Assembly (NCBI GenBank): GCA_963807625.1
Contig: CAWECN010000012.1
Span: 259,583-323,582 of the forward strand
Reading direction: 5' to 3'
DNA: 64,000 nt
Source: an uncultured Gammaproteobacteria bacterium
GTDB taxonomy: Bacteria; Pseudomonadota; Gammaproteobacteria; SZUA-229
Position 1 is the first letter of the stretch. Each line of letters starts with the position of its first letter. Of this stretch, positions 14,175 to 62,103 are shown in pieces. The translations under genes were made by a program, and so were the position numbers. The notes under the pieces were generated by a model that worked only from the letters and a program-made list of their open reading frames with translations, ran no database searches and was not told where the DNA came from.

Positions 14175-14180
14175 TGCTCG

Positions 14181-14456: not shown

Positions 14457-14463
14457 TCTGCGT

Positions 14464-15829: not shown

Positions 15830-16206
15830 ACATGCTAACCGACATCCCGATTTCACTCATCGTTCTGTGCAGCGGCCTGGCCCTGATACTGATCGGCATG
15901 TGGGGCATGCTGACACAGCGTAACATGATCCGCATGATCATCGGCTTCTCGCTGACCGATACCGGTATCCACATGGTCATGGTATCGATAGGTTATGTCA
16001 CCGGCGGCACGGCGCCGATCATCAACGATGCGGTACCCATAGCCGATGCCGTTAACATGGTGGTTGATCCGGTACCCTCTGCACTGGTTCTCACCGCCAT
16101 CGTGATCGGTCTCGGTGTTACCGCGGTGATGCTGGCCTTTGCAGTTCGTATCTATAAAGCGCGCAACACTTTAAACATCGATGAATGTACGGAGTCGAAA
16201 TGGTAA
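15826..16206 (+). CDS. MrpC/NuoK-like subunit
   Basis: 126-aa three-TM protein of the NuoK/MrpC family (GMWGMLTQRNMIRMIIGFSL). Confidence 0.7.
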   Translation: MNMLTDIPISLIVLCSGLALILIGMWGMLTQRNMIRMIIGFSLTDTGIHMVMVSIGYVTGGTAPIINDAVPIADAVNMVVDPVPSALVLTAIVIGLGVTAVMLAFAVRIYKARNTLNIDECTESKW

Positions 16207-20320: not shown

Positions 20321-20332
20321 TAGGACATAACT

Positions 20333-20965: not shown

Positions 20966-21011
20966 CAGAATTTGGCTGGTAGCCAATATTAGCTAATAGA
21001 TAAGTGAAACT

Positions 21012-21554
21012 ATGAATGAATTGATGGAAAGACTGCAGCGTGACTTTGGTGTCAATGACATCATCGTGCGTAAACCTGCGCTGACGACACTCAAGGTCAG
21101 TAAAGACAGTACTGAAACACTGATCCGTGAACTGCGCGATCGTGAAGGTTACACGCATCTCAATTTCATGACCTGCATCGACTATATCGAGGACGGCATT
21201 TTCACCCTGGTCTACATGCTGCACAACTTCGAAAAAACACACTCAATAGGCGTACACGTCGATATCAGCCGTGACAATGAAGACATGGTCTCCATCCATA
21301 CACTGTGGGCACAGGCATGGACCTACCAGCGGGAGCTGCGTGAGATGTACGGCATCAATTTCCCCGGCAGCCCGCGTCTCGAGGAAGACTTCTGCCTGGA
21401 AGGCTGGGACGATATACCACCGATGCGCCGCGAGTTCGATACCAAAAAATTCAGCCAGGAACGTTTCGGCCACCGTGAAGGCCGGCACAGCGAAGTGCCG
21501 CGTGAGCACATGAAAGTAGAAATCTACCCGAACCGCGGGGGTGACGAGAAATGA
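21012..21554 (+). CDS. NuoC-like (30-kDa subunit) protein
   Basis: 180 aa. ERELREMYGINFPGSP is the NuoC signature. Confidence 0.75.
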   Translation: MNELMERLQRDFGVNDIIVRKPALTTLKVSKDSTETLIRELRDREGYTHLNFMTCIDYIEDGIFTLVYMLHNFEKTHSIGVHVDISRDNEDMVSIHTLWAQAWTYQRELREMYGINFPGSPRLEEDFCLEGWDDIPPMRREFDTKKFSQERFGHREGRHSEVPREHMKVEIYPNRGGDEK

Positions 21555-22750: not shown

Positions 22751-22766
22751 TGGGAGAGATAATGTC

Positions 22767-24575: not shown

Positions 24576-24590
24576 AGCAGGTAAATTAAT

Positions 24591-25037
24591 ATGAATACAG
24601 TTGATGAGATACTGGATTACGCCATTGATCAGGAACAGCAGGCAGCTGATTTTTATGCAGATGTCGCACAACGCGCCGAGTCAGCCGGCATGAAAAAACT
24701 GCTGCTGGACTTTTCCGAAGAAGAAAAACGCCATAAAGAGATCCTGCTGGCAGTGAAAACCGGCGAGCATGAACTGACACCGGAACAGGAAGTACTGGAT
24801 CTGAAGATTTCTGATTACCTGGTCGAAGTCGAAGCCAGTGAAAACATCTCCTATCAGGACGCGTTGATCATCGCGATGAAACGTGAACGCGCCGCCTATG
24901 AACTCTACACCGACATGGCGGCAAAAGTACCCGAAAGCCACCTCAAGGAAGTGCTCGAGGGCCTCGCCAAAGAAGAGGCGAAGCATAAACTGTTCTTCGA
25001 AGCAGAATATGATGAACGGGTGCTGATGGACAACTAA
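24591..25037 (+). CDS. Rubrerythrin/ferritin-like diiron protein (no rubredoxin domain)
   Basis: 148 aa with two E..H di-iron half-sites (EEEKRHKE, EEAKHKL) in a four-helix-bundle pattern. It starts 16 nt after the preceding gene, so it is probably co-transcribed. Confidence 0.6.
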   Translation: MNTVDEILDYAIDQEQQAADFYADVAQRAESAGMKKLLLDFSEEEKRHKEILLAVKTGEHELTPEQEVLDLKISDYLVEVEASENISYQDALIIAMKRERAAYELYTDMAAKVPESHLKEVLEGLAKEEAKHKLFFEAEYDERVLMDN

Positions 25038-25063
25038 AAAGCAGCGAAAAGTGAAAAATAGAT

Positions 25064-25133
25064 TGTCATCTCGACTAAAGGGAGAGATCTTTACCACCAG
25101 CATATCAGATCTCTCCCTTTAGTCGAGATGACA
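25064..25133. repeat. Perfect 27-bp inverted repeat (hairpin, 16-nt loop) between the rubrerythrin-like gene and pgm
   Basis: TGTCATCTCGACTAAAGGGAGAGATCT ... AGATCTCTCCCTTTAGTCGAGATGACA. No T-run follows. Confidence 0.8.
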
Positions 25134-29813: not shown

Positions 29814-30974
29814 TTAGAAGACAAATTGTGTTTGCAGGAACACTTCATCTTCATCAGCGTTTTCGACACCGTTAAGGTTTTCACCCATCCTGTAAGTCAA
29901 CTGAACTTTGGTATCATGTTTATTTATGAACCAGTTCGCACCGACGGAGGTACGGTTCCAGGCTGTCGCGTAAGCATCGGCATCCTGTGTCTGGTAACCA
30001 GCTACGATTTCGATGGTGTTATTAATCATATAACCACCTTCGACAGCCGCATTAGTTAATGTAGTTGTACCATTTTGATACAGGCCTCCGGTAAATCCTG
30101 ATTCAACGGTATCCGCATCGAATGAGTTGTACTGTGCATCGACCGAAAAACCAGCCGCACGGAATGCGCCACTGACCTCAAGTCCAGTTACTGAGTCAAT
30201 ATCTGCTTTTGAGGTGCTCGGAAAATTTTCACCGCCGGTTGAATATGTGTCATTGTCACCATCGTTGCTCCAGCCATATGCAGCCACACCGATAGTCGCT
30301 TTGGTTTTTCCTGAGAAGTCACCCTGGGCAAATTTCAACTTTCCAAAGGGATGGAAATCAACACGTCCACCGATCATGAAACCATCATTGAAATCATCAT
30401 TCCTGTTGACTGGTGTATCAAAATCCAGTTTTTTAGCATCTGGATCTATCGAAGCGATCGTACCTGAAGCACCCCACGTAACTTTTTTGCTCTCTGTATT
30501 ACCGGTCATGTGGATACCTACATTACGGTCTGGTGTACCGTAATTATGGTCACCGACAAATGTACGTTCGACTAATTGCTGATATTTAGATGAGGTTAAA
30601 AACTCTCGTGAAAATGGAAAATTAGCATTACCGATCGTCAGCTTTGCGTTTGACATTCCCTTGTACTGAAAATAGGCATCTTTAATCGCAATTTCATTTT
30701 CTCCTTCAGCCTTACCCATGTCCCACTGGATCTTCGCTTTCCAGTCTTTATGCGTACTGCCTTCTATATAAGGCCTTAATCTTCTGAAGAATATCTCGTC
30801 GGTTGTGTCGCCACCATCTGGTTGCACCTGGTGGTACTGAAGCTGGATTCGACCGCCAACTTTTAGATAATCATCACCATCTTTATAAGTAATGCCACCT
30901 GCAAAGGCAGATAAAGGTGTAGCTAATGCTGTGATTACAGCAACGTGAATAATCTTGTTCGTGGTTAATTGCAT
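29814..30974 (-). CDS. Outer-membrane porin (possibly OprO/OprP-like)
   Basis: Signal peptide (ATPLSAFA). The 386-aa beta-rich protein ends in ...LQTQFVF, a C-terminal Phe. Confidence 0.6.
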   Translation of the reverse strand: MQLTTNKIIHVAVITALATPLSAFAGGITYKDGDDYLKVGGRIQLQYHQVQPDGGDTTDEIFFRRLRPYIEGSTHKDWKAKIQWDMGKAEGENEIAIKDAYFQYKGMSNAKLTIGNANFPFSREFLTSSKYQQLVERTFVGDHNYGTPDRNVGIHMTGNTESKKVTWGASGTIASIDPDAKKLDFDTPVNRNDDFNDGFMIGGRVDFHPFGKLKFAQGDFSGKTKATIGVAAYGWSNDGDNDTYSTGGENFPSTSKADIDSVTGLEVSGAFRAAGFSVDAQYNSFDADTVESGFTGGLYQNGTTTLTNAAVEGGYMINNTIEIVAGYQTQDADAYATAWNRTSVGANWFINKHDTKVQLTYRMGENLNGVENADEDEVFLQTQFVF

Positions 30975-31180
30975 TTATAAACTCCCGTTTGAAAAATTAA
31001 CGAAGGGAAGCTTATTAGTGATTTGTTACTATATTGCTACAGAGTTGAGACGTTATTGTTACAACCGGAACATAACTCCTTTCAGGCAGGAAATATCCCC
31101 CGCCTGGCTTATACTCTATATAGAGGATGTAACTTTATACACATTACATCAATGTTGTTGCTGTTACTTATTAGAGAGAA

Positions 31181-31414
31181 ATGTCTATGAACAATCTGAA
31201 AGGACTGCTTGAAACAATACAGGATGATAAGGAAAAATTTATGAAAGGGTTAAGAGAACAGGATCAAGACAGAAATTATAAGACACCTGAAGTCATCGCG
31301 ATACTGGAGCTTAGTTTTGCGTTAGTCCAAGCGTCAATAATGACCTTGATGGAAGCAGAGAGAGCAAATAAAATGCAAAAGGATTCACCTATGCCTCGTT
31401 ATCATGAAGAATAA
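31181..31414 (+). CDS. Hypothetical small protein
   Basis: ORF only. Charged and helical. No family recognised. Confidence 0.3.
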   Translation: MSMNNLKGLLETIQDDKEKFMKGLREQDQDRNYKTPEVIAILELSFALVQASIMTLMEAERANKMQKDSPMPRYHEE

Positions 31415-31724
31415 TTTTCACATATTCATCATCATGCAATGTAAACAACTTAATTAATACTAGCCGTACAAAATATTTTGTGTCTGCTTGCATCGCATCA
31501 TAAGAATGCGACAGTTAAAGATATCTTAAATATTTGAATAGCTGTACAAGCGCTCACACTGATAAGATTTGCGATAGGTCTGAAAGTCAATCCATCATAT
31601 GCATGAACCGGACATGTCCGCAAATGATCCGGTAGATACAACATCCTTTTCGGTCTGGTTGCGCCAATGTATCAAAATACAACCACATTCTTTAATCTAG
31701 AGGGTCACTGTTGCCCATTAACAG

Positions 31725-31997
31725 TCATTCAAACAGGACTACGATGGCGATGATAAATATCGCTATCGCCAGTATAGATACACCCATCGCGATCGATTCC
31801 CGCCTCCAGACAGGCGCTTCGTTTTTCTCCATCTCTTGTTCCATGGCAGCGACTCTTCTCATCGATTCCTGAATACCTGCCACATATTCTTTGCTCCCCT
31901 GCTTCTGTAGTGCGATCCAGTTATGTAGTTCAGCATTAGATTTATCTTTTAATTCATACTGGTCATCTAAGTACGACATCTCTATAACCACCCTCAA
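31725..31997 (-). CDS. Hypothetical protein with a C-terminal TM anchor
   Basis: ORF only. C-terminal hydrophobic stretch ILAIAIFIIAIVVLF. Confidence 0.3.
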   Translation of the reverse strand: MRVVIEMSYLDDQYELKDKSNAELHNWIALQKQGSKEYVAGIQESMRRVAAMEQEMEKNEAPVWRRESIAMGVSILAIAIFIIAIVVLFE

Positions 31998-32408
31998 CTC
32001 GTTTATATGTAACCATGCATATATCTTTTTTGCTATCGAACGATTATTGATTAAATGCTCGACACTTCAAACTAACAGTAGTGATTGCTCAAGCATATGA
32101 CTTAAGTCAACTGCTTATAAGATGAGAGAATGCTTAAGTATTAATGTCAACAAGTGTTTGAAATCGATTGTTAGAGCCCTGGCCATATGGCTAATCACTG
32201 ACCCAGATACCAGTGAGCACGCCCTCATAACTCGTCAATGAAATGTAACTAAAGATTGACCATATTTGATAATTTCAGCACAAAGCAGACCTCCTACTAA
32301 TTTGACTGACAAAGAAAAGACGGCCCATTAAAGTCATTTAGAGAACTCTAATATTACTGTTGCTAGAGGACTACATCCGGCCCTAAAAGGACAGCCCACA
32401 ATTAAGTA

Positions 32409-33521
32409 TTATCCTTTCGGACAGCACTCGTCGTAGCTTTGAATACCTTCGCCTTTCTCATACCAGCCAATGGTTGAATTAACGACGCGAACAGCAAGCA
32501 GCATAACGGGCACTTCGATTAAGACGCCAACTACTGTAGCCAGCGCAGCCCCTGATTCAAAACCGAACAAGGCGATCGCGGTAGCGACTGCAAGCTCAAA
32601 AAAGTTACTGGCACCGATCAAAGCGGAAGGTCCCGCAACACAGTGCGGTGATTTTACTGCGCGATTAAGTAGATAAGCCAAACCTGAATTGAATAACACC
32701 TGAATCAGGATAGGTACGGCTAGCAGCAATATGATAAGTGGCTGCTTCATTATTTGTTCGCCCTGAAATCCGAACAGTAATACCAGCGTTGAAAGCAATG
32801 CGCCTAAAGACCATGGGTGAAGTGTCTTCAGTGTACGATCCAGTCTTTGTTGTCCATTGTTGCCGCTGAGTAATAATCTACGCAATATGTTGGCGATTAT
32901 CAGTGGTACAACAATGTATAGCAACACCGACAGGAACAGGGTGTCCCAGGGAACTGAGATAGACGATATACCAAGTAATAGAGCCACAATTGGCGCAAAT
33001 GCGAATACCATGATGACATCGTTTAATGCTACCTGTGTCAGCGTGAAATGAGGCTCACCTCGTGACAGGTTGCTCCACACAAACACCATCGCTGTGCAGG
33101 GCGCAGCGGCTAAAAGGATCAGGCCGGCAATATAGCTGTCAATCTGGTCTTCCGGCAACCAGCCCCGAAACAGGTAGCCGATAAACAGCCAGCCCAGCAG
33201 CGCCATCGAAAAAGGTTTTATTGCCCAGTTAACAAACAATGTGACGCCAATACCTCGCCAGTATTTACTGACGTCCTTCAGCGCTCTGAGGTCAATTTTA
33301 AGTAACATTGGAATAATCATTAACCAGATCAGGAACGCAACAGGCATGTTGATCTGTGCGACTTCAAGTTGGCCTATCCCTTGAAAAAACTGCGGTACCC
33401 AGTGACCCAACCCAATGCCTGTTACGATGCAAAGCATTACCCACAACGTAAGATAACGTTCGAAAAATCCCATGTCAGCATTCGCTGATTTTTTTGCAGT
33501 GGTTTCACATTGTACAGACAT
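32409..33521 (-). CDS. acr3: Arsenite efflux transporter, ACR3 family
   Basis: The N-terminal region is conserved with ACR3 (GFFERYLTLWVMLCIVTGIGLGHWVP...AFLIWLMIIPMLLKID). About 10 TM helices, 370 aa. Confidence 0.85.
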   Translation of the reverse strand: MSVQCETTAKKSANADMGFFERYLTLWVMLCIVTGIGLGHWVPQFFQGIGQLEVAQINMPVAFLIWLMIIPMLLKIDLRALKDVSKYWRGIGVTLFVNWAIKPFSMALLGWLFIGYLFRGWLPEDQIDSYIAGLILLAAAPCTAMVFVWSNLSRGEPHFTLTQVALNDVIMVFAFAPIVALLLGISSISVPWDTLFLSVLLYIVVPLIIANILRRLLLSGNNGQQRLDRTLKTLHPWSLGALLSTLVLLFGFQGEQIMKQPLIILLLAVPILIQVLFNSGLAYLLNRAVKSPHCVAGPSALIGASNFFELAVATAIALFGFESGAALATVVGVLIEVPVMLLAVRVVNSTIGWYEKGEGIQSYDECCPKG

Positions 33522-44093: not shown

Positions 44094-45284
44094 ATGATTA
44101 AACCTCATGGTTCAGACGAACTAAATCCACTGTTCGTATACGATCCCGCTGCAAACGAAGCATTACAAAAAGAAGCTGAAGGCCTGGCTTCTATCCTTGT
44201 AAGTTCTGCTACAGCCGCTAACGCAGTCATGCTGGGTGCCGGTTACTTCAACCCGCTGACGGGTTACATGAATAAAGCTGATGCATTATCAGTTGCAACA
44301 GACCTGAAAACTACATCTGGCCTGTTCTGGCCTACTCCAGTGTTAAACCTGGTAAAAGATGCGGGTGGCATCAAAACCGGTGATCGTATCGCGCTTAAAG
44401 ATCCAAACGTTGAAGGTAACCCTGTTATCGCAGTCATGGATGTTGAAGCAGTCGAAGAATTTTCCGACGACGACATCAAGTTGATCACCGAGAAAGTCTA
44501 TGCGCCTGCAGCTGGTGAAGACCACCCGGGTGTTGACGCTTTTGTTGAGCAGGGTAAAGTATGCCTGTCAGGCCCTATCCAGGTACTGAACTTCTCTTAC
44601 TTCCAGACTGAATTCCCTGATACTTTCCGTACTGCTGTTGAGATCCGCAACGAGATCGCAGAACGCGGCTGGAAAAAAGTTGTTGCCTTCCAGACCCGTA
44701 ACCCGATGCACCTCGCACACGAAGAACTTTGCCACATGGCGATGGATCGTTTAGGTTGTGATGGCCTGGTCATCCACATGCTGTTAGGCAAACTGAAACC
44801 AGGTGATATCCCTGCGCCTGTTCGTGATGCTGCTATCCGTAAGATGGTTGAACTGTACTTCCCTGCTAACAGCGCAATGGTTACCGGTTACGGTTTCGAT
44901 ATGCTGTACGCTGGACCACGTGAAGGTGTATTACACGCTGTGTTCCGTCAGAACATGGGGGCGACTCACTTCATCATCGGTCGTGACCATGCTGGCGTTG
45001 GTGATCACTACGGTGCGTTTGATGCACAAACAATATTTGATGACAAGGTACCAGCCGGTGCATTGGAGATCGAGATATTCAAAGCCGACCACACCGCCTA
45101 CTCTAAGAAATTAGACAAAGTTGTAATGATGTGTGAAGCACCAGATCATGAGAAAGAAGATTTCGTTCTTCTTTCAGGTACTAAAGTTCGCGAGATGTTA
45201 GGTAACGGTATCGCACCACCTAAAGAATTCTCACGTCCCGAAGTTGCTCAGATCCTGATGGATTACTACTCAAGCCTAAAATAA
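44094..45284 (+). CDS. sat: Sulfate adenylyltransferase (dissimilatory-type ATP sulfurylase)
   Basis: QTRNPMHLAHEEL, GRDHAG and HxxH-like motifs of homo-oligomeric ATP sulfurylase. 396 aa. Confidence 0.9.
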   Translation: MIKPHGSDELNPLFVYDPAANEALQKEAEGLASILVSSATAANAVMLGAGYFNPLTGYMNKADALSVATDLKTTSGLFWPTPVLNLVKDAGGIKTGDRIALKDPNVEGNPVIAVMDVEAVEEFSDDDIKLITEKVYAPAAGEDHPGVDAFVEQGKVCLSGPIQVLNFSYFQTEFPDTFRTAVEIRNEIAERGWKKVVAFQTRNPMHLAHEELCHMAMDRLGCDGLVIHMLLGKLKPGDIPAPVRDAAIRKMVELYFPANSAMVTGYGFDMLYAGPREGVLHAVFRQNMGATHFIIGRDHAGVGDHYGAFDAQTIFDDKVPAGALEIEIFKADHTAYSKKLDKVVMMCEAPDHEKEDFVLLSGTKVREMLGNGIAPPKEFSRPEVAQILMDYYSSLK

Positions 45285-46522: not shown

Positions 46523-47170
46523 TTATTTTAGCCTGGGAACAAACGCCACTTCATCTCCGTGCTCGATGAGTGTAAATGGCTCGGAGAACTGCTTATTTAC
46601 CGTTACCTGCAGGCGATTATCTGTAAACGGCTCCTGCCAGCGATCGCCACGTTTTCGCATCCATGCCAGCAATGTTTCCACGTTGGTGACAGATTCAGGG
46701 ATGATGACCTCCTCTTCATCCCTGCCGGATACTCTTGCCAGGTCTATAAAATAAAGCAGTTTGATGACGACCTTGCCCTCGGTATCCGTTATCCTGGCAT
46801 CACCACGGCTTAAACCATGTTTATCCAGTCGTTCCAGGTAGCCCTGCCAATTGGCCTCATAGTTCTTTCCTAACTCGTGCAACGTGCTCCATGAAAAGAT
46901 ACCCGTGTCGTGGCCATCATCGAAGGTGATCTTTAATGCGTAGGAGCCCTGGGGATCCAGCATCGATATGTTGACCATCTGTTTGCCATGAACAGGCTTG
47001 TTCATTACTTTGACTTCAGCAGCGGTTGAAAACACGCGTAGATATTCACACGGGAAGTTAAATCGAAAGCCATCGGAAAAGGCGATTTCCAGTAACCGTG
47101 ACTTTTGATGAAGATTGATTTCGGTCGGGCTGACATGAGCATTATCTTGCTCGGTATTGGTTTCTGACAT
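46523..47170 (-). CDS. Fusion of DUF971 (N-terminal) and a MoaD/ThiS-like beta-grasp domain (C-terminal) lacking the terminal Gly-Gly
   Basis: N-terminal LEIAFSDGFRFNFPCEYLRVFS matches DUF971. C-terminal KLLYFIDLARVSG...DRWQEPFTDNRLQVTVNKQFSEPFTLIEHGDEVAFVPRLK aligns with MoaD (...DRWALALEDGKLLAAVNQTLVSFDHPLTDGDEVAFFPPVTGG) but ends PRLK. Confidence 0.6.
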   Translation of the reverse strand: MSETNTEQDNAHVSPTEINLHQKSRLLEIAFSDGFRFNFPCEYLRVFSTAAEVKVMNKPVHGKQMVNISMLDPQGSYALKITFDDGHDTGIFSWSTLHELGKNYEANWQGYLERLDKHGLSRGDARITDTEGKVVIKLLYFIDLARVSGRDEEEVIIPESVTNVETLLAWMRKRGDRWQEPFTDNRLQVTVNKQFSEPFTLIEHGDEVAFVPRLK

Positions 47171-47756: not shown

Positions 47757-48230
47757 ATGCCTACTTTTGTACGTACTGAAAAGTGTGATGGATGTAAAGG
47801 CCAAGACCGTACAGCTTGCATGTACATCTGCCCACACGATCTAATGAAATTAGACAAAGACGGTTCTGAAACAGGACACGCCATGAAGTCTTACAACCAG
47901 GAACCAGAGCAATGCTGGGAATGTTATTCTTGCGTTAAAATCTGTCCTCAGAATGCTATCGAATGTCGTCACTATGCTGACGTTGTACCTTTGGGCGGTT
48001 CTGTACAGCCTTTACGTGGTACTGATTCTATTATGTGGACTATCAAGTTCCGTAACGGAAACATGAAACGCTTCAAATTCCCTATTCGTACTACTGCAGA
48101 AGGTTCTATCGATCCTTATGCTGGTAAACCAGAAGCTGACATGGCGAAGATCTCTGATCCAGGTTTCTTCAACCACATGGAACAGAACGGTTACCGTGCT
48201 GGCGATCCAAGCGAATTAATCAATAAATAA
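47757..48230 (+). CDS. aprB: Adenylylsulfate (APS) reductase beta subunit
   Basis: Two [4Fe-4S] motifs (CDGCKGQDRTACMYICP, CWECYSCVKICP) and the AprB-specific C-terminal tail. 157 aa. Confidence 0.9.
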   Translation: MPTFVRTEKCDGCKGQDRTACMYICPHDLMKLDKDGSETGHAMKSYNQEPEQCWECYSCVKICPQNAIECRHYADVVPLGGSVQPLRGTDSIMWTIKFRNGNMKRFKFPIRTTAEGSIDPYAGKPEADMAKISDPGFFNHMEQNGYRAGDPSELINK

Positions 48231-48247
48231 TATAGAGGTTTAGAAAA

Positions 48248-50233
48248 ATGGCCGAATTTGGTAATCCTGATGTTGTCGAAGAAGAAGTAGACATTCTTCT
48301 TATTGGTGGCGGTATGGCTTGTTGCGGAACAGCGTTCGAAATTCCACGCTGGATCGAAGCTTCAGGCAAAGACATTTCTGTTAAATTAGTTGATAAAGCT
48401 GCTATGGACCGTTCTGGTGCTGTTGCTCAAGGTTTGTCTGCTATTAACACTTACATTGGATCTGAACAAGATCCAGCTGACTATGCTCGTATGGTTTCTA
48501 ACGACCTTATGGGTATTACTCGTGATGACCTTGCGTACGACTTAGGTCGCCACGTAGATGAGTCTGTTCACCTGTTCGAAGAATGGGGTCTGCCTATTTG
48601 GAAAACGGATGAGAATGGCGAGCGTTTTGACGGTTCTAAAGGTATGACATCATTGAAAGATGGTGGTAAGCCTGTACGTTCTGGTAAATGGCAGATCATG
48701 ATCAATGGTGAATCTTACAAATGGATCGTCGCTGAAGCTGCTAAGAAAGCTTTAGGTGTTGATCGTATTGATGAGCGTATCTTCATCGTTAAATTAATCA
48801 ACGACAAAAACGACCCTAGCAAAATTGCTGGTGCTGTTGGTTTCTCTACTCGTGATGACAAGATCGTTGTATACAAAGCTAAGGCAATCCTTCTGGCTGC
48901 TGGTGGTTGTGTAAACATCTTCCGTCCACGTTCTGTTGGTGAAGGTACTGGTCGTGCATGGTACCCAGTATGGAACGCAGGCTCTACATACTCAATGGCT
49001 GCTGAAGCAGGCGCTGAGTTAACACTGATGGAAAATCGTTTCGTACCGACTCGTTTCAAAGACGGTTACGGTCCTGTTGGCGCATGGTTCCTGCTGTTTA
49101 AAGCACAGGCTACTAACGCATACGGCGAAGCTTACATGCAGAAAAACAAAGACATGCTAGACGACTACCCTCCTTACGGTGCGGCTGCTGTCCCTGCTTC
49201 TTGTCTGCGTAACCACTTAATGCTTAAAGAGATGAAAGACGGTAACGGTCCTATCTGGATGGATACTGTAACTGCTCTTGGCAACCTGCGCGAAACTCTG
49301 TCTCCTCGCGAAGTTAAGCATCTGGAAGCTGAAGCATGGGAAGATTTCCTTGACATGTGTGTTGGTCAATGTGGTATCTGGGTTGGTGAGAACATTGAGC
49401 CAGAGAAGAAAAACTCTGAGTTAATGCCTACCGAACCATACCTGTTAGGTTCACACTCTGGTTGTTGTGGTATATGGACTTCTGGTCCTGATGATGTTGG
49501 CGCGCCTACTACTGAGACAGAGCCTGGTGTACCTGATCACCTTCCACAAGGTTGGAACTGGGGCTACCGCGGCATGACTACTGTAAACGGTCTGTTCACA
49601 GCAGGTGACGGTGTTGGTGCTTCTGGCCACAAATTCTCTTCAGGCTCTCATGCTGAAGGTCGTCTGTGTGCCAAGTCTATGGTTAAATATGTACTGGATA
49701 ACGCTGATTACCAGCCTGAATTAGATACTTCCGTTGAAGATCTGGTTGCTGAAATCTACCGTCCAGTTCGCACATTCCTTGAGCATAAAGACTACACAAC
49801 AGCAATCGACGTTAACCCTAACTACATCACTCCTAAGATGCTGCAGTTCCGTCTGCAGAAGATTATGGACGAGTATGTAGCTGGTGTTGCAACTTATTAC
49901 AACACTAACGCCGAAATGATGAAAGTTGCTGGCGAAAAGATCGACATGCTTAAAGAAGACGCTATGAAGATGCGTGCTAAAGACCTTCACGAATTACTTC
50001 GTGCCTGGGAAAATTATCACCGCATAATCACTGCTGAAGCTCATCTGAAACACATCGAGTTCCGTCAGGAATCACGTTACCCAGGTTTCTACTATCGTAC
50101 AGACAAGAACTTTGTCGACGAAGAAAACTGGCATTGTTTCGTGAATTCAATTTACGACAAGAAAACTCAAAAGTTCACATGCTTCAAGCGTGCGCACGTT
50201 GATTTGGTAGACAAGTCTAAACTGTTCAAGTAA
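48248..50233 (+). CDS. aprA: Adenylylsulfate (APS) reductase alpha subunit (FAD flavoprotein)
   Basis: N-terminal FAD fold (DILLIGGGMACCG). AprA-length protein of 661 aa. It lies immediately after aprB. Confidence 0.95.
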   Translation: MAEFGNPDVVEEEVDILLIGGGMACCGTAFEIPRWIEASGKDISVKLVDKAAMDRSGAVAQGLSAINTYIGSEQDPADYARMVSNDLMGITRDDLAYDLGRHVDESVHLFEEWGLPIWKTDENGERFDGSKGMTSLKDGGKPVRSGKWQIMINGESYKWIVAEAAKKALGVDRIDERIFIVKLINDKNDPSKIAGAVGFSTRDDKIVVYKAKAILLAAGGCVNIFRPRSVGEGTGRAWYPVWNAGSTYSMAAEAGAELTLMENRFVPTRFKDGYGPVGAWFLLFKAQATNAYGEAYMQKNKDMLDDYPPYGAAAVPASCLRNHLMLKEMKDGNGPIWMDTVTALGNLRETLSPREVKHLEAEAWEDFLDMCVGQCGIWVGENIEPEKKNSELMPTEPYLLGSHSGCCGIWTSGPDDVGAPTTETEPGVPDHLPQGWNWGYRGMTTVNGLFTAGDGVGASGHKFSSGSHAEGRLCAKSMVKYVLDNADYQPELDTSVEDLVAEIYRPVRTFLEHKDYTTAIDVNPNYITPKMLQFRLQKIMDEYVAGVATYYNTNAEMMKVAGEKIDMLKEDAMKMRAKDLHELLRAWENYHRIITAEAHLKHIEFRQESRYPGFYYRTDKNFVDEENWHCFVNSIYDKKTQKFTCFKRAHVDLVDKSKLFK

Positions 50234-52050: not shown

Positions 52051-52785
52051 TTAAGCTTTAATATAAACCCAGCCTTTCTCCAGACGATCTGGTATCAGAT
52101 CTCTCGCCGACTTATCCGAGTCCACACCCGGTAAAAGTTTGATTTCGATACCTTCTCTCTTTTGTGCTTTCGCGACGGACCTCTCACAGGCAAAGAAAGA
52201 GACATCATCATCTTCGATCATTTTCTGAATACGTTCGACATAGGGTGACACACCCGGTCTTAACATATTGATGCCACCTTTATTAGTGATGACATCCAGC
52301 TTCATCGGTACGTTGGCTTTTTTATAGGTTGCTAGCAGATGGTCTACTTCATTCAATGCCGCATTTACAACCTGCAGATCACCGGAATCGATATGCAGGA
52401 TAATCTTACGATTACCATGATCCACAGCTACGTGATTTGCCACATACTGAAAAGTATTTTCAGCAGACACCTCACCGATTGATTGAGGACTGTAATGATA
52501 TGTCTCCCAACCGAGGAATACACCGATAACAAGTGTCACTGATGCCGCTATCGCCCTGCCAAACATAGAGTATGATTTTTTTGCCTGCTGGTTTTCATAA
52601 TCAGGTCCAGGTACGTCACTATAGGCATAGCCGATCAGTTCACGAACGGCTTTTAACTGGCAGACACGTTCACGCAACTCCTTATCTTCCATTACCGCCT
52701 GGCGTATTTCATTCAGCTCATCTGTATCGAGCTCTTCGTCGATGAACAGGTTTAATTGATCATCAGAGAGATCTTTGATCGTCAT
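52051..52785 (-). CDS. RseA-like anti-sigma factor with a periplasmic DsrE/YchN-like (COG1416) domain
   Basis: The N-terminal LSDDQLNLFIDEELDTDELNEI is RseA-type. One TM (AIAASVTLVIGVFLGW). The C-terminal 120 aa align with the DsrE-like ORF 54038..54526 (KIILHID..D...ALNEV; SFFACERSV; EKGWVYIKA versus KVVYHINYD; EFNVCENTV; AMGYSYIKP). The start codon overlaps the sigma-factor stop. Confidence 0.7.
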   Translation of the reverse strand: MTIKDLSDDQLNLFIDEELDTDELNEIRQAVMEDKELRERVCQLKAVRELIGYAYSDVPGPDYENQQAKKSYSMFGRAIAASVTLVIGVFLGWETYHYSPQSIGEVSAENTFQYVANHVAVDHGNRKIILHIDSGDLQVVNAALNEVDHLLATYKKANVPMKLDVITNKGGINMLRPGVSPYVERIQKMIEDDDVSFFACERSVAKAQKREGIEIKLLPGVDSDKSARDLIPDRLEKGWVYIKA

Positions 52786-53333
52786 TATTTTACCCTTCGT
52801 AATTTAAATTCAGATATTTCATCTGAACCAAACTCCAGTAACTGTTGCTTTAAATTCTTTCGTGCTCTAAAGAGGCGGCTCATCACTGTTCCGATGGGGA
52901 CCTTGGTAATCTCTGCAATTTCTGCATAACTAAAACCTGCAAAATCTGCCAGTGTAACTACTTCACGTAATGCCATGGGTAACTGCTCGACAGACTCCCT
53001 CACCCGTTTGACTATCTCCGACTGCTGGTAGTTGTCCGAATGTCCCGCCTGTTGTTCATCATGCATCTCGACAAACTCGACATTCCTGCCTTTGACACGC
53101 AAATAATCCTGCCAGCTGTTATAAAGGATGCGATACAGCCAGCTGTCTAATGTGTTTACATCACGCAGTTTAGAAGCGTTCTTTATGGCCTTGTATATGG
53201 TTTCCTGTACCAGGTCATCGGCCAGAGCTGGATCATGGCACCAGGAATACGCGATTCTATATAACTTGTTACGCCGTGCAGCAAACTCAGATTTTAGTGT
53301 GATTGCTGCTACCAGATTTTTAACAACTTTCAT
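52785..53333 (-). CDS. ECF (sigma-24 family) RNA polymerase sigma factor
   Basis: Region 2 (DDLVQETIYKAIKN...WLYRILYN) and region 4 (SYAEIAEITKVPIGTVMSRLFRARKNL). Confidence 0.85.
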   Translation of the reverse strand: MKVVKNLVAAITLKSEFAARRNKLYRIAYSWCHDPALADDLVQETIYKAIKNASKLRDVNTLDSWLYRILYNSWQDYLRVKGRNVEFVEMHDEQQAGHSDNYQQSEIVKRVRESVEQLPMALREVVTLADFAGFSYAEIAEITKVPIGTVMSRLFRARKNLKQQLLEFGSDEISEFKLRRVK

Positions 53334-53453
53334 ATAAACTCCCAATATCTCAATAATAGACGCAACACCCGCAAAAATATTCCAATACTTTTATGTGAAT
53401 AATTAACCAGCCACGTGCGTCTCTATAGCTACCAATATATCAAATGAGAGCAA

Positions 53454-53993
53454 ATGAAACCGAATTTTTACAATTTTATTAGATCATGTCTAGTTATTTC
53501 AACGTTGCTGTCTATTACCAGTAGCAACGTATATGCAGCATTCGATATAACACTTAAAAGTACAGATGATAGCGAGCATAAACTCTCGGACTATATCGGC
53601 CAGGGAAAATGGGTCGTTTTGAACATATGGGGCACTCGCTGCCCACCCTGTCGTGAAGAGATGCCAGAACTTGTCAGATTTCATGATGAACACAACAGTG
53701 TTGACGCCATCGTCGTTGGTATAGCCATAGATTTCCCCAGTTATGGCTACGCAAAAAAAGGCGAAGTAATAGCTTTTGCTGATGATTATCTCATCGATTT
53801 TCCGTTGCTGCTAAGTGACGCAGACATTACCGAAAAAACAGGATTAGGACGATTAGAAGGACTGCCTACCACGTATGTTTTTAACCCCGGCGGTAAAGTA
53901 GTCGGCGTACAGGTAGGCGGTATCACAAAAAAGATTATTGAAGACTTTATCAACAAATTGAAGCTGCAATCCCTGAACAGCTCAATTAACTAA
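53454..53993 (+). CDS. TlpA/ResA-like periplasmic thiol:disulfide oxidoreductase (thioredoxin fold)
   Basis: Signal peptide. WVVLNIWGTRCPPCREEMPEL is the CxxC active site in TlpA context. Confidence 0.8.
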   Translation: MKPNFYNFIRSCLVISTLLSITSSNVYAAFDITLKSTDDSEHKLSDYIGQGKWVVLNIWGTRCPPCREEMPELVRFHDEHNSVDAIVVGIAIDFPSYGYAKKGEVIAFADDYLIDFPLLLSDADITEKTGLGRLEGLPTTYVFNPGGKVVGVQVGGITKKIIEDFINKLKLQSLNSSIN

Positions 53994-54037
53994 AAAAACA
54001 AGGGCACAAACCACACCAAACCAGAAGAGGATATAAG

Positions 54038-54526
54038 ATGAACACATTAAAAACAAAGTTACTGACCGCCTTTATGATGAGTATATGCCTGTTGATGATG
54101 ACCACGGCACATGCAAACGAACGTTATGGCAAACAGAAAGTGGTTTACCACATCAACTATGACAACCCTAAGAAACAGGCTGGTGCATTACGTAACATAC
54201 AGAATCATATCAATGCTGTCGGTGCTGAAAACCTGGATTTGAAAGTAGTACTACACGGCAATGGACTGGCGCTTTTGTTAGACCCGGACTCATTAGAAAA
54301 ATTAACAAAATTCAAGAATGCCAATGCTAATGAAACCATGACAGCAAAGATTGACGGTCTCAAAAGTCAGGGTGTCGAGTTCAATGTATGCGAAAACACT
54401 GTGCGTGGTCGGAAAGTAAACGTTGATTCTGATCTTTACAATGTCGACAAGAAAGATATCGTTCCGAGTGGTGTCGCTGAAGTCGCCAGGCTGCAGGCGA
54501 TGGGTTATTCATACATAAAACCATAA
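54038..54526 (+). CDS. Periplasmic DsrE/DsrF-like (YchN-fold, COG1416) protein
   Basis: Signal peptide (TTAHANE). KVVYHINYDNPKK..ALRNIQNHI...LKVVLHGNGL and GVEFNVCENTVRGRKV...VPSGVAEVARLQAMGYSYIKP match the family. A conserved Cys is present. Confidence 0.7.
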   Translation: MNTLKTKLLTAFMMSICLLMMTTAHANERYGKQKVVYHINYDNPKKQAGALRNIQNHINAVGAENLDLKVVLHGNGLALLLDPDSLEKLTKFKNANANETMTAKIDGLKSQGVEFNVCENTVRGRKVNVDSDLYNVDKKDIVPSGVAEVARLQAMGYSYIKP

Positions 54527-54663
54527 TCGCTTATTACTCATAGATAGTCGCAGTTATAGATTCAGTACAGGTTTATTTTCAGATCAACGTGAATAATTAT
54601 CTTACTGAGCCGTCTAACAAAACGAACTATGTTTTTTTATAAACCAAAACAATAACATGAAAT

Positions 54664-55117
54664 TTGGAGACATTAATGAAAAACCTATTATCAGTATTTC
54701 TTCTTTTGATGGCAGTCAGCACCAGCTATCAGATCCAGGCAGCAGAAGAAGACAAACCTTTTGCGGAAGAAAGAATCGTATTACAGATAAGCGACAACGA
54801 CCCTTCGAAACAGACATTAGTGCTTAATGTTGCATCAAACCTGGTCAAACATTACGGCCAGGATAAAGTTGACGTGGAAATTGTTGCCTTCGGCCCGGGA
54901 TTACGTCTGATGTTTAAAGACAATGTTAATAAAGGTCGTATTAGGGACTGACATCGCAGTGGTGTCAAGTTCGCCGCCTGCAAAAACACGATTACCGAGC
55001 ATGACTAAAATTTTAGGTCATGCACCAGAGATGAATAGTAATGCAGCACCCGTTTCAGCCGGAGTGGTACGCATTATCGACTTAGAAAACCAGGGATTTA
55101 AACTGCTTAAACCCTAA
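54664..55117 (+). pseudogene. DsrE-like paralog disrupted by an in-frame TGA and a downstream frameshift
   Basis: Frame 1 reads ...RIVLQISDNDPSKQTLVLNVASNL...NKGRIRD, then TGA at 54949–54951, then HRSGVKFAACKNTITEHD, then a stop. The homologous C-terminus ...PVSAGVVRIIDLENQGFKLLKP continues in another frame (ORF 54923..55117). Confidence 0.55.
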
Positions 55118-55166
55118 AATAAATCGTACCTATAAAAATAATATTTCCTTTCGGGAGGATGAAGAA

Positions 55167-56630
55167 TGAATTACAAGAATAAATTATTAATGAAAGCAAT
55201 TGGAGTCGCGCTATTGAGCAGCACTTCGACTGTACAGGCCGCAAACTGGTTGATGCTGCAAGGCACAGAACCAGCGGGAGCAGCTGCACGTGCCAAAGTG
55301 TGGGGTTTCATTCAGGCGCAGTATCAAAAAGACAACAAGTGACGCAAATATTGCAGACGGTTACATTCCACCCAAACTCATTGGGCCAAACCTTGATACA
55401 CAGAGCTCTTTCAATGTTAATCGCGCACGTATTGGTGTTCGTGGCACTGGAATGCCAATAGATTCAGCAAAGTGAACTACTTCATACTTGCTGAATTTGG
55501 TAATAACGGTATTACTGCACCTGGCGGTTACAGCCCAGCGCTAACAGATGCCAGTGTTACATTAAACCATATACCAGGTGCCGAATACGTGCCGGTTTGT
55601 TTAAAACCCCGGTGCTGAGGAGGGGCTACAGGCTATCCACGTTTTTGATTACATTAATTTCACCACCGTAACAAACCAGATGATGTTGGAAAGATTCCCA
55701 AACACTACTTACACACCTAATACTCCAGCGCAAACACTACCAACAGATACGCCATTGACAGAGGTTGGATATACCCAATCTGTCAGCGCTTTTCGTGATG
55801 TAGGTATCCAGGTATTTGATACCTTTAAAGTAGGCACATGGGAACACAGTTACGCTGCCATGATCGGCAATGGTAATGGCCTGAGCCGTGGTAATTACAA
55901 TGGTAGTTATGATAAGTACCTTTACTGGTCTTCTGAAAATGTATATGGTGGTAAAGGCGGACGAAGAGAAGGCTTAAAGATGTTTGCATGGGGACAGACC
56001 GGCAAGCGTACGTTAGATAACACTAACAACTTTACTGCTACAACTACAAGCACACCTGTACTTGATTCTACTGGAACACCCACCGGCGATACTATCGAGA
56101 CCACTGTCAATACACCGATCCATGATCCCAAAGAATATGATCGCGATCGATACGGCCTGGGTTTCAAATACCTGCAAAGACCTTTCCGTGTTTCTGCCGA
56201 GTACCTGATAGGCAAAGGCATGATCTTTGTCGGCCCGGATAAACCATCAATGTGGGTAAACGATGCAGCCGGAGCAGTTGCCCAGGGTGTTGGCGATGGT
56301 GCAGACGGCGAAGCTAATGGCTACTACCTCGAAGGTGGCTGGTATATCCCGGACACGAACTGGGAAATCGACTTGCGTTACGATGTCTATAATCGTCTAA
56401 CGGATGATAAACAGGGCACTGCAGGTCCTCTCGCCGGAAAATCACTTGAAGTGCAGTTCAATACTGTAACGTTAGGTACTCAGTATCACTTCAACAAGAA
56501 AACTCGTGTCAATGCTGAAGTAGCATTTAGGGACTTTGAAGCCCCTGACTGGGCATCAGGTGCAGGTCCGAACTCTAACCTCGATAACATGGGCGAACGT
56601 TATGCGATACAGCTAACCCACATCTTCTAA
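55167..56630 (+). pseudogene. Porin gene broken into at least four frame segments
   Basis: MNYKNKLLMKAIGVALLSSTSTVQA...QKDNK, then stop. It continues in other frames as SDANIADGYIPPK..., VNYFILAEFGNNG..., and ORF 55680..56630, which ends ...AIQLTHIF. Together they make one roughly 480-aa beta-barrel porin. Confidence 0.55.
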
Positions 56631-56694: not shown

Positions 56695-56722
56695 AGGGCC
56701 CGCAAGGGCCCTGTTTTTTTTA
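56695..56722 (+). terminator. Rho-independent terminator
   Basis: AGGGCC-CGCA-AGGGCCCTG followed by T8. Confidence 0.75.
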
Positions 56723-56755: not shown

Positions 56756-57223
56756 ATGAATTCTGTCAATAAAATTTCTGTCCAGGCACTCGTCATCACG
56801 ATACTGTTGAGCACACAGGCCTATGCGGACAACTCGAATGGAATGATAATTATTAAAAGCAACAATAGTGTTACAGCTACAATCGATAAACTTGAAAATG
56901 TCCTTAAAACAAAGGGCATGACAATTTTTAAACGAGTAAATCATGCAGCGGGGGCAGAAAAAGCAGGTCTACAGTTACGTCCCACAGAGCTGCTTATCTT
57001 CGGTAATCCAAAAGTCGGCACACCCTTGATGTTATGTTCACAGACAGCCGCTTTAGACCTGCCACAAAAAGCACTGGCTTATGAAGATGAGGATGGCAAG
57101 GTGTGGCTGGCATATAACGATCCTGCTTACATGGCGAAAAGACACGGTATACAGGGCTGTGAGAAACCGCTTCAAAAAGTTACTAATGCACTCGCTAAAT
57201 TCACCAGGATAGCAACTGAATAA
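56756..57223 (+). CDS. Secreted DUF302-domain protein
   Basis: Signal peptide (LSTQAYADN). ...RVNHAAGAEKAGLQLRPTELLIFGNPKVGTPLM...LDLPQKALAYEDEDGKVWLAYNDP matches the DUF302 pattern. Start at the internal Met of ORF 56654..57223. Confidence 0.65.
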   Translation: MNSVNKISVQALVITILLSTQAYADNSNGMIIIKSNNSVTATIDKLENVLKTKGMTIFKRVNHAAGAEKAGLQLRPTELLIFGNPKVGTPLMLCSQTAALDLPQKALAYEDEDGKVWLAYNDPAYMAKRHGIQGCEKPLQKVTNALAKFTRIATE

Positions 57224-60996: not shown

Positions 60997-62103
60997 ATGG
61001 AACTGCCGCAAATCGAAGATTATCACTCTATTTTATTAAACGATACCCCGTTACTGGATGTCCGTGCCCCCGTTGAATTTGACCAGGGAGCTTTCCCCTT
61101 CGCAAAAAACTTTCCTTTGATCAACGACCAGGAGCGGGAAGCGATAGGCATCCGCTACAAGAACCTGGGACAGGATGAAGCCATAAAGCTAGGTCACGAG
61201 CTGGTTCAGAGTGAAGCTAAATCACAGCGTGTACAACACTGGCAGGACTTCTTCGAGCAGAACCCACAAGGTGTACTCTATTGCTTTCGTGGCGGCATGC
61301 GTTCGAAGATATCGCAGCAATGGATATATGAAAAAACCGGAACAATCTATCCAAGGATCAAAGGTGGTTACAAAGCCATGCGTCGTTTTCTGATCGACGA
61401 ATTAGAGATATCCGCTCAACAGCTCAATCCGGTAATGATCGGTGGCCGAACCGGTATCGGGAAAACAGTCTTACTACAGCAACTAGATCAACAGGTCGAC
61501 CTCGAAGGCATTTATCACCACCGTGGTTCGGTATTTGGAAAACATGTCACACCACAGCCATCACAGATCGATATCGAGAACAGGTTATCTATCGAATTAC
61601 TCAAGATCCGAAACAGACAATACTCTCAGATTGTTTTAGAAGATGAAGGCACGAACATTGGCTCCAGAGCGATACCGGATATACTGTTTGCCAGGATGAA
61701 ACAGTCACCTTTAATCCTGCTGGAAGCCAGTATCGATGAACGCGTCGATATCACATTTCAGGAATATATCAGCGAATCCCTGGCCGAACACCAACGATAT
61801 AATGGTGATGAAGCAGGCTTTGAATCATGGGCTGATCAGCTACAGACATCTATCGACAAGATACAACGTCGACTTGGTGGCGTTCGTCACAAAGAACTTA
61901 AAACACTGCTCACTGATGCTATCCAGAGGCAATTATCTACAGGCGATGCAGAACGGCACAAAGACTGGATAAGATTATTACTCGTTGACTATTATGACCC
62001 GATGTATGATTTTCAAACAGAAAAAAAACTGGACAGGGTCATCTTCAGAGGTCAGAAAAACGAAGTCCTCAGTTACCTGAAAGAACATCATAAGATAACA
62101 TAA
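60997..62103 (+). CDS. selU: tRNA 2-selenouridine(34) synthase (rhodanese plus P-loop)
   Basis: Rhodanese active site YCFRGGMRS and P-loop GGRTGIGKT in YbbB/MnmH arrangement. 368 aa. Confidence 0.85.
   Translation: MELPQIEDYHSILLNDTPLLDVRAPVEFDQGAFPFAKNFPLINDQEREAIGIRYKNLGQDEAIKLGHELVQSEAKSQRVQHWQDFFEQNPQGVLYCFRGGMRSKISQQWIYEKTGTIYPRIKGGYKAMRRFLIDELEISAQQLNPVMIGGRTGIGKTVLLQQLDQQVDLEGIYHHRGSVFGKHVTPQPSQIDIENRLSIELLKIRNRQYSQIVLEDEGTNIGSRAIPDILFARMKQSPLILLEASIDERVDITFQEYISESLAEHQRYNGDEAGFESWADQLQTSIDKIQRRLGGVRHKELKTLLTDAIQRQLSTGDAERHKDWIRLLLVDYYDPMYDFQTEKKLDRVIFRGQKNEVLSYLKEHHKIT

Follow-up and report, generated by a model that had tools for sequence, protein, structure and literature searches.

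What does an extracytoplasmic function (ECF) sigma factor respond to when its anti-sigma partner presents a domain of the DsrE/YchN fold to the periplasm? This question is raised by a gene cluster in a stretch of 64,000 nucleotides from an uncultured gammaproteobacterium (GTDB lineage SZUA-229; assembly GCA_963807625.1, contig CAWECN010000012.1, positions 259,583 to 323,582), which in its full length is called the window here. The cluster consists of a sigma gene, an anti-sigma gene and neighbouring genes for a TlpA-like thioredoxin, two secreted DsrE-like proteins (DsrE1 and DsrE2), a porin and a DUF302 protein. Based on the architecture of the anti-sigma factor and on a promoter motif shared by several of these genes, we describe an ECF/anti-sigma pair whose input domain is of a new class and whose probable regulon is made up of the sensor's own paralogs, a combination that is apparently undescribed.

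An ECF sigma factor and an anti-sigma factor with a DsrE/YchN-fold domain

The sigma protein matched Sigma70_r2 (1.4e-14), Sigma70_r4_2 (4.1e-16) and Sigma70_ECF in Pfam, and the same scan gave no match to the Sigma70 r3 domain. In NCBIfam it scored 88.9 bits against the sigma70-ECF superfamily (cutoff 42.9) and stayed below the cutoff of all specific sigma models (equivalogs). Its nearest solved structures are SigH of M. tuberculosis, AlgU of P. aeruginosa and RpoE of E. coli. With sigma-2 and sigma-4 domains only and a length of 182 residues (about 180-200 are expected), it has the make-up of an ECF (group 4) factor. The open reading frame (ORF) finder opened the gene at TTG 53345 (52785-53345, minus strand); the ATG at 53333 is the likely true start. 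The sigma gene lies directly upstream of the anti-sigma gene in 46 of 46 loci, the two overlap by 1-4 nt wherever both were called, and one gene call (P0367) joins them in a single protein. The ECF sigma/anti-sigma pair that the first-pass annotation had read from this DNA is borne out by these observations.

The AlphaFold2 model of the 244-residue anti-sigma protein, with a mean predicted local distance difference test score (pLDDT) of 87, shows helices at residues 8-56, a hydrophobic helix at 74-98, a low-confidence tether and an alpha/beta domain at 126-243. Two lysines and an arginine stand before the transmembrane helix and acidic residues follow it, which by the positive-inside rule predicts an N-in/C-out topology, with the alpha/beta domain in the periplasm.

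Three comparisons agree in placing the predicted periplasmic domain among the DsrE/YchN-like proteins, in the MTH1491/COG1416 branch, as the first-pass annotation had proposed. In phmmer, residues 127-243 aligned with MTH1491 (PDB 1L1S) at E 2.8e-4. A profile of 58 family sequences matched 1L1S at E 7.5e-21, with positions 124-241 on residues 4-112, and its C-terminal half matched ST0148 (2PD2) at E 1.1e-10. A Foldseek search with the domain returned 1L1S (template modelling score 0.88), 2PD2, the putative DsrE 3PNX, YchN and the DsrE of DsrEFH. The homology to MTH1491 spans the entire domain and takes in both the Cys that follows strand 3 and the GW-Y-I motif at the C-terminus, and the three-layer alpha/beta fold is that of the DsrE/DsrF/DsrH-YchN superfamily. 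Direct scans with family models were less uniform. On the one hand, the window protein itself had no match in Pfam (at E<0.1) or NCBIfam, including none to RseA_N, RseA_C or PF02635, the family suggested for it in the first place. On the other hand, 14 of the 58 relatives matched DsrE PF02635 (E<0.01) when scanned singly.

The same annotation had called the protein RseA-like, which is correct for the N-terminal anti-sigma domain only. The N-terminal 50 residues of the family profile gave marginal matches (E 0.05-0.08) to MucA (6IN7_A) and to the RseA N-terminal domain (8Z6G_A), and the Pfam scan of single relatives found zf-HC2 in 17/58 and RseA_N in 2/58. This part of the protein corresponds to the helical domain of class I anti-sigma factors that is predicted to bind sigma; among the 58 sequences its D16 never varies, and L11, L19 and Y55 hardly do. 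An RseA_C domain and an HxxxCxxC zinc/redox motif are absent; the sole cytoplasmic cysteine, C42, is kept in 49 of the 58 sequences. Judged from its sequence, the window protein is neither a member of the RseA family proper nor a zinc-binding anti-sigma (ZAS) protein.

Besides D16, the invariant positions of the 58-sequence alignment are C200, W239 and Y241, and H131, N168, G171, A199, P219, R234 and G238 are near-invariant. C200 is unchanged in all 58 of these diverse homologs and is the sole cysteine beyond the membrane in 57 of them. The three paralogs of the window share the surrounding motif (ACERS in the anti-sigma factor, VCENT in DsrE1, ACKNT in DsrE2), and a single mature cysteine is kept in 17/17 orthologs of DsrE1 (FNVC-NT; FNVCENT in the window) and 33/33 orthologs of DsrE2 (F-AC-NT), so that the conserved cysteine claimed earlier for the three proteins stands. 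In the alignment and the AlphaFold2 model, C200 follows strand 3, and H131 and N168/G171 follow strands 1 and 2. C200, H131, N168 and G171 thus all come at the C-terminal end of a strand, and in a parallel alpha/beta fold residues so placed should line one pocket. The DsrEFH/TusBCD relay passes persulfide from Cys78 of DsrE/TusD. The topological position of C200, where the helix that follows strand 3 begins, would be consistent with that of Cys78. A profile of the three paralogs matched MTH1491 and ST0148 entries only in the PDB, not DsrE or TusD.

The fusion of an anti-sigma domain with a DsrE-like domain is widespread. Among 1.84 billion cluster representatives, it was found in 785 clusters (at 50% identity) at E<1e-3 and in 508 at E<1e-10. 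The best 150 clusters are nearly all about 240 residues long and align from about residue 5 to 243 with 29-38% identity; this architecture is not a chance juxtaposition. A genome search with a 9-sequence alignment gave mainly close relatives, and distant loci were fetched individually. The genome matches all came from metagenome-assembled genomes (MAGs) of uncultured Gammaproteobacteria labelled Thiotrichaceae, Thiotrichales or Arenicellales, and there is one cultured carrier, Thiohalobacter sp. IOR34 (CP128988, QVG61_12430). In the source annotations the proteins are called 'hypothetical protein' or 'intracellular sulfur oxidation DsrE/DsrF family protein' and in no case anti-sigma, and the word 'intracellular' is misleading for a periplasmic domain. 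A description of a DsrE-like anti-sigma factor was not found in the searched literature, Pfam or NCBIfam, a search that did not cover the ECF Hub group descriptions, and the main text of the ECF reclassification paper (Staron/Casas-Pastor classification) makes no mention of DsrE. Our literature search also found no functional work on the MTH1491/COG1416 branch. To this extent we agree with the earlier suggestion that the module is undescribed.

Promoter motif, regulon and neighbouring genes

A conserved ECF-type promoter motif, tGAATAA-N-CGTCT, precedes three transcription units of the cluster, namely the sigma/anti-sigma operon, the divergent tlpA-dsrE1 unit and the dsrE2-porin unit (Table 1). 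The sequence 5' of the sigma gene, GGAATATTTTTGCGGGTGTTGCGTCTAT, is ECF-promoter-like, with a GGAAT-type -35 and a CGTC-type -10 element, and the motif found there would represent the AAC-like -35/CGT-like -10 autoregulatory promoter that is typical of such operons. GAATA-N14-17-CGTCT occurs exactly 3 times in the 64-kb window, all inside the cluster, versus 0.51 expected, and 2 of 100 shuffles reach 3 matches. When a position weight matrix (PWM) from all sites was applied, no other position in the window scored above 14. A motif of its own before dsrE1 was not found in the window.

We scanned 44 sequences for this motif (43 loci and the window, 516 kb). Of the 104 matches, 41 were located before sigma, 31 before dsrE2, 25 before tlpA and 4 before dsrE1; two of the remaining three lie at contig ends that cut off dsrE2, and one is unexplained. 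Because 101 of 104 matches fall at these four genes, the regulon appears to be largely defined by the motif positions. The sigma-side motif is present in 41 of the 44 sequences, and four further distant loci carry it as well, three with CGTCT and L047 with CGTCA. The pair of a sigma-side site and a divergent site on the side of the DsrE2-like gene recurs in L043, L045, L046 and L047, where the anti-sigma factors are only 30-34% identical to that of the window, and the sigma-side site is present in L041 (Thiohalobacter) and L048. The spacer between the two blocks has 15 or 16 nt, and its sequence is not conserved. The free paralogs and TlpA share their promoter motif with the sigma operon and are thus probable members of the regulon, not mere neighbours, which would fit a feedback or partner role.

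Some loci deviate from this pattern. In L046, two extra GGAATAAAT-N-CGTC(T/A) sites, at 9385-9410 (minus) and 9672-9697 (plus), are located downstream of the anti-sigma gene. One faces a gene of 128 aa, the other a gene of 70 aa with a 492-aa metallophosphoesterase-like gene behind it, so that some lineages may have a larger regulon. In the clade of the window, too, the anti-sigma gene constantly has a Metallophos_2 gene beside it, but one that carries no motif. In L041, an orphan motif at 6499-6523 (minus) lies in a repeat-rich spacer and has no obvious downstream gene. The spacer 5' of the sigma gene of this locus (6400-7350; IOR34, CP128988) is filled with repeated sequence, visible as peptide strings that recur in several reading frames. 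Neither a DsrE2 nor a porin gene was found near the sigma gene of L041, and therefore the regulon of Thiohalobacter sp. IOR34 must lie elsewhere in its genome.

The gene neighbours were counted in 33 loci in which 2.5 kb or more of sequence precedes the sigma gene. Among these, dsrE2 is present in 30, the porin gene in 27, the DUF302 gene in 19, tlpA in 18, dsrE1 in 13 and an adjacent aprA in 11. The first-pass annotation had clustered the pair with TlpA and secreted DsrE-like paralogs. They are indeed neighbours and linked by the motif, but the conserved core partners are DsrE2 and the porin, and TlpA and DsrE1 are accessory. The distant loci L041, L042 and L048 have no adjacent DsrE paralog.

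In the genome of the window, the sigma/anti-sigma genes, tlpA, dsrE1 and all three promoters are intact, and dsrE2 and the porin gene are inactivated. Compared with the intact genes of L001 and L003, dsrE2 is interrupted by an in-frame TGA (54949-54951) and by a 1-bp insertion close to 54995. We considered whether the TGA encodes selenocysteine and rejected this, as it aligns with Leu/Thr and not with Cys in the orthologs and is followed by the frameshift. Compared with L003, the closest relative (anti-sigma 91% identical), the porin gene has indels within its first 450 nt at 55337 (+1), 55467 (+2), 55581 (-1) and 55607 (-1), and keeps an intact C-terminal ORF of 316 aa. As most lesions are away from homopolymers and one is a substitution, they are more likely to reflect genuine decay than errors of sequencing. 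Accordingly, the description of the third paralog as decayed was right, but its dismissal was not, given that it is the ortholog of the most conserved member of the regulon; the identity of DsrE2 among relatives is 82-91%, versus about 68% for the anti-sigma factor in the same clade. The intact DsrE2 ortholog scores 18 bits against PF02635, below the cutoff of 22.7, and the intact porin orthologs match Porin_4 and Porin_O_P. A second Porin_O_P porin, which is intact, is encoded at 29814-30974 (minus) of the window (E 6.7e-18) and could compensate for the decayed porin of the cluster. In L046, an unrelated metagenome contig, the porin gene beside the DsrE2-like gene is split into two calls of 219 and 260 aa (4492-5942), so that this porin has either decayed as well or been misassembled.

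The two intact genes of the divergent unit encode the TlpA-like protein and DsrE1. The first of these was named a TlpA-type thioredoxin from the start, and we came to the same result: it matches AhpC-TSA (5e-21) and Redoxin (2.3e-14) in Pfam, has a hydrophobic N-terminus and keeps a CPPC motif in 25/25 orthologs, and its nearest solved relatives are ResA (E 1.8e-16) and DsbE. The thioredoxin fold, the CxxC motif and the export signal together place it in the TlpA/ResA/DsbE group. Within this group it missed the NCBIfam equivalog cutoffs for TlpA (50/230 bits), ResA (74/170) and DsbE (30/123). DsrE1 has a signal peptide that ends in AHA and matches PF02635 at E 3.1e-11 (43.9 bits, cutoff 22.7) and 1L1S at E 1.3e-7.

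The DUF302 gene follows the dsrE2-porin unit. Its real start is ATG 56756, with a signal peptide that ends in AYA; the TTG 56654 chosen by the ORF finder would cross the hairpin at 56695-56712. Two cysteines are conserved in 16/16 orthologs. We examined DUF302 as a part of the dsrE2 operon and rejected this for the window, where a strong terminator hairpin lies between them and the gene has no motif. The DUF302 gene is probably outside the regulon. DUF302 genes are known from sox clusters (PMC5037610).

Table 1. Features of the cluster by position in the window
Feature	Position	Strand	Details
Anti-sigma factor gene	52051..52785	-	244 aa; 1-nt overlap with the sigma stop (TAATG)
Predicted periplasmic DsrE/YchN-fold sensor domain	52057..52416	-	aa 124-243; MTH1491/COG1416 branch
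Cys200 codon	52186..52188	-	invariant; only periplasmic cysteine
Single transmembrane helix	52492..52566	-	aa 74-98; helix in the AlphaFold2 model; MFGRAIAASVTLVIGVFLGWETYHY
Cytoplasmic anti-sigma domain	52618..52785	-	aa 1-56; three helices
ECF sigma factor gene	52785..53333	-	182 aa from ATG at 53333; GGGAG Shine-Dalgarno sequence ahead
Sigma/anti-sigma operon promoter (motif)	53358..53382	-	GAATA-N15-CGTCT; PWM score 27.3
Divergent tlpA-dsrE1 promoter (motif)	53397..53422	+	GAATA-N16-CGTCT; score 27.9; 32 nt before the tlpA ATG
TlpA/ResA-like periplasmic thiol:disulfide oxidoreductase	53454..53993	+	CPPC; N-terminal signal or anchor
DsrE1, secreted DsrE-family paralog	54038..54526	+	162 aa; 44 nt after tlpA
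dsrE2-porin promoter (motif)	54591..54615	+	GAATA-N15-CGTCT; score 23.7; 61 nt before the dsrE2 ATG
dsrE2 pseudogene	54676..55117	+	ortholog of a secreted 146-aa DsrE-like protein
Porin pseudogene (Porin_4, OprO/P-like)	55166..56630	+	second gene of the dsrE2 operon
Terminator-like GC hairpin and T-tract	56695..56722	+	AGGGCCCGCAAGGGCCCT then GTTTTTTTTA; ends the dsrE2-porin unit
Secreted DUF302 protein	56756..57223	+	PF03625 8.6e-22; conserved neighbour

On the other side of the pair, the window shows the neighbourhood of a sulfur oxidiser, with the ATP sulfurylase gene sat (44094-45284), ApbE and AprB/AprA (47757-50233). Between ApbE and the sulfite-oxidation genes aprBA, a gene at 46523-47170 (minus) encodes an unusual 215-aa fusion of GBBH-like_N and ThiS, a sulfur-carrier ubiquitin fold. 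A few genes from the ECF cluster, a rhodanese and P-loop protein at 60997-62103 (plus) resembles tRNA 2-selenouridine synthase (SelU; labelled AAA_SelU in L001), and we saw no link between the two. Farther away, a GC-rich island at 14000-25100 (0.51-0.55, versus 0.42-0.48 elsewhere) encodes an Mbh/Mbx/Mrp-like membrane complex with MnhB/MbhE, 1066-aa Proton_antipo_M, NuoH-like, Oxidored_q6, 30-kDa and 49-kDa subunits, followed by a GltD/SudA-like Fe-S flavoprotein and rubrerythrin. This island may be a horizontally acquired module of the group-4 hydrogenase-like or sulfane-reductase-like type. The 1.4 kb at 30974-32409 hold no ORF of at least 120 aa, and no Rfam family or tRNA was found anywhere in the window.

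Possible signals and mode of action

We consider it somewhat probable, at slightly better than even chances, that the cluster encodes a periplasmic signalling module in which C200 is modified by sulfur or thiol-reactive species and the paralogs and TlpA act in feedback. In the resting state, the N-terminal helical domain of the anti-sigma factor would retain the ECF sigma factor at the inner membrane, and the DsrE/YchN-fold domain would present its one reactive cysteine, C200, to the periplasm. The signal would be a covalent modification of C200 by sulfane sulfur, polysulfide, thiosulfate-type or other thiol-reactive species, upon which the sigma factor might be released by proteolysis or by a conformational change. 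The freed sigma factor would transcribe the three units, i.e., its own operon, tlpA-dsrE1 and dsrE2-porin. In this case, the cell would make an anion-type channel of the outer membrane, exported paralogs of the sensor with a single Cys each and, in many lineages, also a CPPC reductant for the periplasm. The induced paralogs, together with TlpA where it is present, may take over or remove the modification, or mix into the sensor oligomer. Along similar lines, the first-pass annotation had suggested that the cysteine could be persulfidated and reset by TlpA and that the free DsrE-like protein could act as a decoy or heteromer partner, all of which is inference.

Sulfur or thiol-reactive sensing through C200 is plausible, and a sulfur signal is favoured because of the DsrE/TusD chemistry of the fold, the single-Cys design, the sat/aprBA neighbourhood and the sulfur-oxidising hosts. 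The periplasmic reductants SoxS/SoxW service the carrier Cys of SoxYZ, and this precedent, together with the DUF302 neighbour that is also seen in sox clusters, points in the same direction. Several observations weigh against this reading. In the MTH1491/COG1416 branch, no protein is known for which a function or sulfur transfer has been demonstrated, and hhalign gave no alignment of the family with a TusD sequence. In the window, aprBA and sat have no promoter motif, and no recognised sulfur-oxidation enzyme carries it. TlpA is missing from 15 of 33 loci and is therefore not essential to the mechanism. With dsrE2 and the porin gene dead and the switch intact, the core output must be dispensable here or replaced by DsrE1. 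Most carriers are uncultured MAGs, whose status as sulfur oxidisers is presumed. Finally, owing to the kinship among the loci, a part of the motif conservation reflects shared ancestry, although the spacers are unconserved and the motif recurs in distant loci. A bolder form of the same reading is put forward as tentative and is rather doubtful at present. In it, a DsrE-like fold that carries persulfide would have been recruited as the input domain of an anti-sigma factor, which would make the protein the first sensor of sulfane sulfur or polysulfide to work outside the cytoplasm; it would pass its adduct to, or exchange subunits with, the sigma-induced paralogs in a 'sensor-paralog relay'.

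Other readings of the same data have to be weighed. Paralogs of the sensor domain make up the regulon, and DsrE2 is found in 30 of 33 loci, distant ones included, which would also be expected from titration without chemical sensing. In that case, the tethered sensor would oligomerise with secreted DsrE2 or DsrE1 and thereby gauge the amount of correctly exported paralog, and the cysteine would matter for the work of the paralogs, not for signalling. A comparable case is CpxP, which belongs to the regulon of the envelope sensor CpxA and acts back on it. Oligomers are common among the solved relatives: according to PDB entry titles, DsrEFH and TusBCD are heterohexamers of paralogs, and ST0148 is a building block of a designed symmetric cage (8uja). 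However, the sensor and the paralogs are only 20-28% identical, and the retention of C200, H131 and N168 at about 30% identity of the sensor suggests a functional pocket of its own. Considering also that L041, L042 and L048 lack an adjacent paralog and that DsrE2 is dead in the genome of the window, we regard titration as unlikely.

A single exposed Cys beside a conserved His, and a TlpA/ResA-like reductant in the regulon of 18/33 loci, could equally belong to a general envelope sensor of thiol redox state, oxidants or soft metals, in which C200, possibly with H131, is oxidised or binds Cu(I), Hg or Cd. The regulon would then protect or repair periplasmic thiols, and the sulfur neighbourhood would be incidental. 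ECF systems of this kind are known, e.g., SigF-NrsF of Caulobacter, which mounts an envelope redox/metal stress response through periplasmic Cys residues. This explanation seems quite unlikely to us: in none of the loci does the motif precede a gene for metal efflux, a peroxidase, a Dsb protein or a methionine sulfoxide reductase, and a DsrE-like protein with an anion-type porin would be an odd response to oxidants or metals, TlpA being accessory. It is also conceivable that no signalling takes place and that the 244-aa protein is a membrane-anchored DsrE-like carrier or enzyme merely encoded downstream of a sigma gene, as might be suspected from the lack of anti-sigma matches of the window protein in Pfam and NCBIfam and from the marginal profile matches to MucA and RseA_N. 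We consider this highly improbable, given the adjacency and overlap with the sigma gene, the zf-HC2 matches of relatives, the conserved residues D16, L11, L19 and Y55, and the classic layout of anti-sigma domain, transmembrane helix and sensor.

The favoured reading, i.e., sensing through C200 in the periplasm, bears on a poorly understood matter. How sulfur oxidisers monitor sulfur in the periplasm is not well known, though much sulfur chemistry occurs there, and the reactive-sulfur sensors that we know of (CstR, SqrR, BigR, FisR) are all cytoplasmic. The present family is a widespread candidate for such a periplasmic sensor, with at least 500 clusters (50% identity) from Gammaproteobacteria of marine and sediment habitats. 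Through it, proteins of the DsrE/YchN fold are placed outside the cytoplasm, and the uncharacterised COG1416 branch is tied to signalling. Moreover, secreted DsrE2 and the anion-type porin form a highly conserved pair of unknown function in uncultured sulfur oxidisers. The proposal is directly testable, as the sensor residue C200, the promoter motif and a three-unit regulon are defined. If its bolder form is true, the COG1416 branch and the abundant marine DsrE2/porin pair would gain a role in periplasmic sulfur handling, and the sensor-paralog relay would be a principle that no ECF system is known to use.

Comparison with known systems

In its layout, the module resembles RpoE-RseA and AlgU-MucA. 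The solved relatives of the sigma factor include AlgU and RpoE, and the family profile weakly matches MucA and RseA_N. As in those systems, the anti-sigma factor has an N-terminal helical domain, one transmembrane helix and a periplasmic domain, and the genes are translationally coupled in an operon under its own ECF-type promoter. Unlike those systems, the periplasmic domain has the DsrE/YchN fold and is not RseA_C or MucA_C, the cluster contains no rseB, rseC or mucB gene, and the regulon is tiny, with paralogs, a porin and TlpA. There is also no sign in the window module of the trigger of RpoE-RseA, in which outer-membrane-protein C-termini act through DegS. With the class I anti-sigma factors of the zf-HC2 type, such as RsiW of RsiW-SigW, the protein would share the mode of working on the cytoplasmic face, but it has the single C42 in place of an HxxxCxxC motif.

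Among ECF factors, the ECF26 members RpoE1 and RpoE4 of Sinorhizobium meliloti respond to sulfite, and the sorAB-linked RpoE of Starkeya is comparable (PMC3511301). Other sulfur-linked ECF systems were not found in the searched literature. The ECF26 factors are tied to inorganic sulfur metabolism, as the present one probably is, and like it they have a small regulon with the own operon and its neighbours. They differ in that the ECF26 anti-sigma factor is of the COG5662 type without a DsrE-like domain, and in that the regulon consists of sulfite oxidase, cytochrome c and pseudoazurin (PMC3511301). In addition, the signal of the ECF26 factors is apparently intracellular, and their hosts are Alpha- and Betaproteobacteria.

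The closest structural relatives of the sensor domain, MTH1491 (1L1S) and ST0148 (2PD2), are free cytoplasmic archaeal proteins with no membrane anchor or signalling domain, and N168 of the window sensor is not conserved in them. The DsrEFH and TusBCD proteins work in the cytoplasm, as heterohexamers from which DsrC or TusE receives sulfur, whereas the window proteins are predicted to be periplasmic and their cluster has no dsrC, tusE or tusA gene. Two further systems are not related to the sensor by homology, as it resembles neither SoxY nor CpxA in descent, and offer functional analogies only. SoxS/SoxW-SoxYZ provides that of a periplasmic reductant which keeps the Cys of a sulfur carrier usable, and CpxP-CpxA that of a regulon product which acts back on an envelope sensor.

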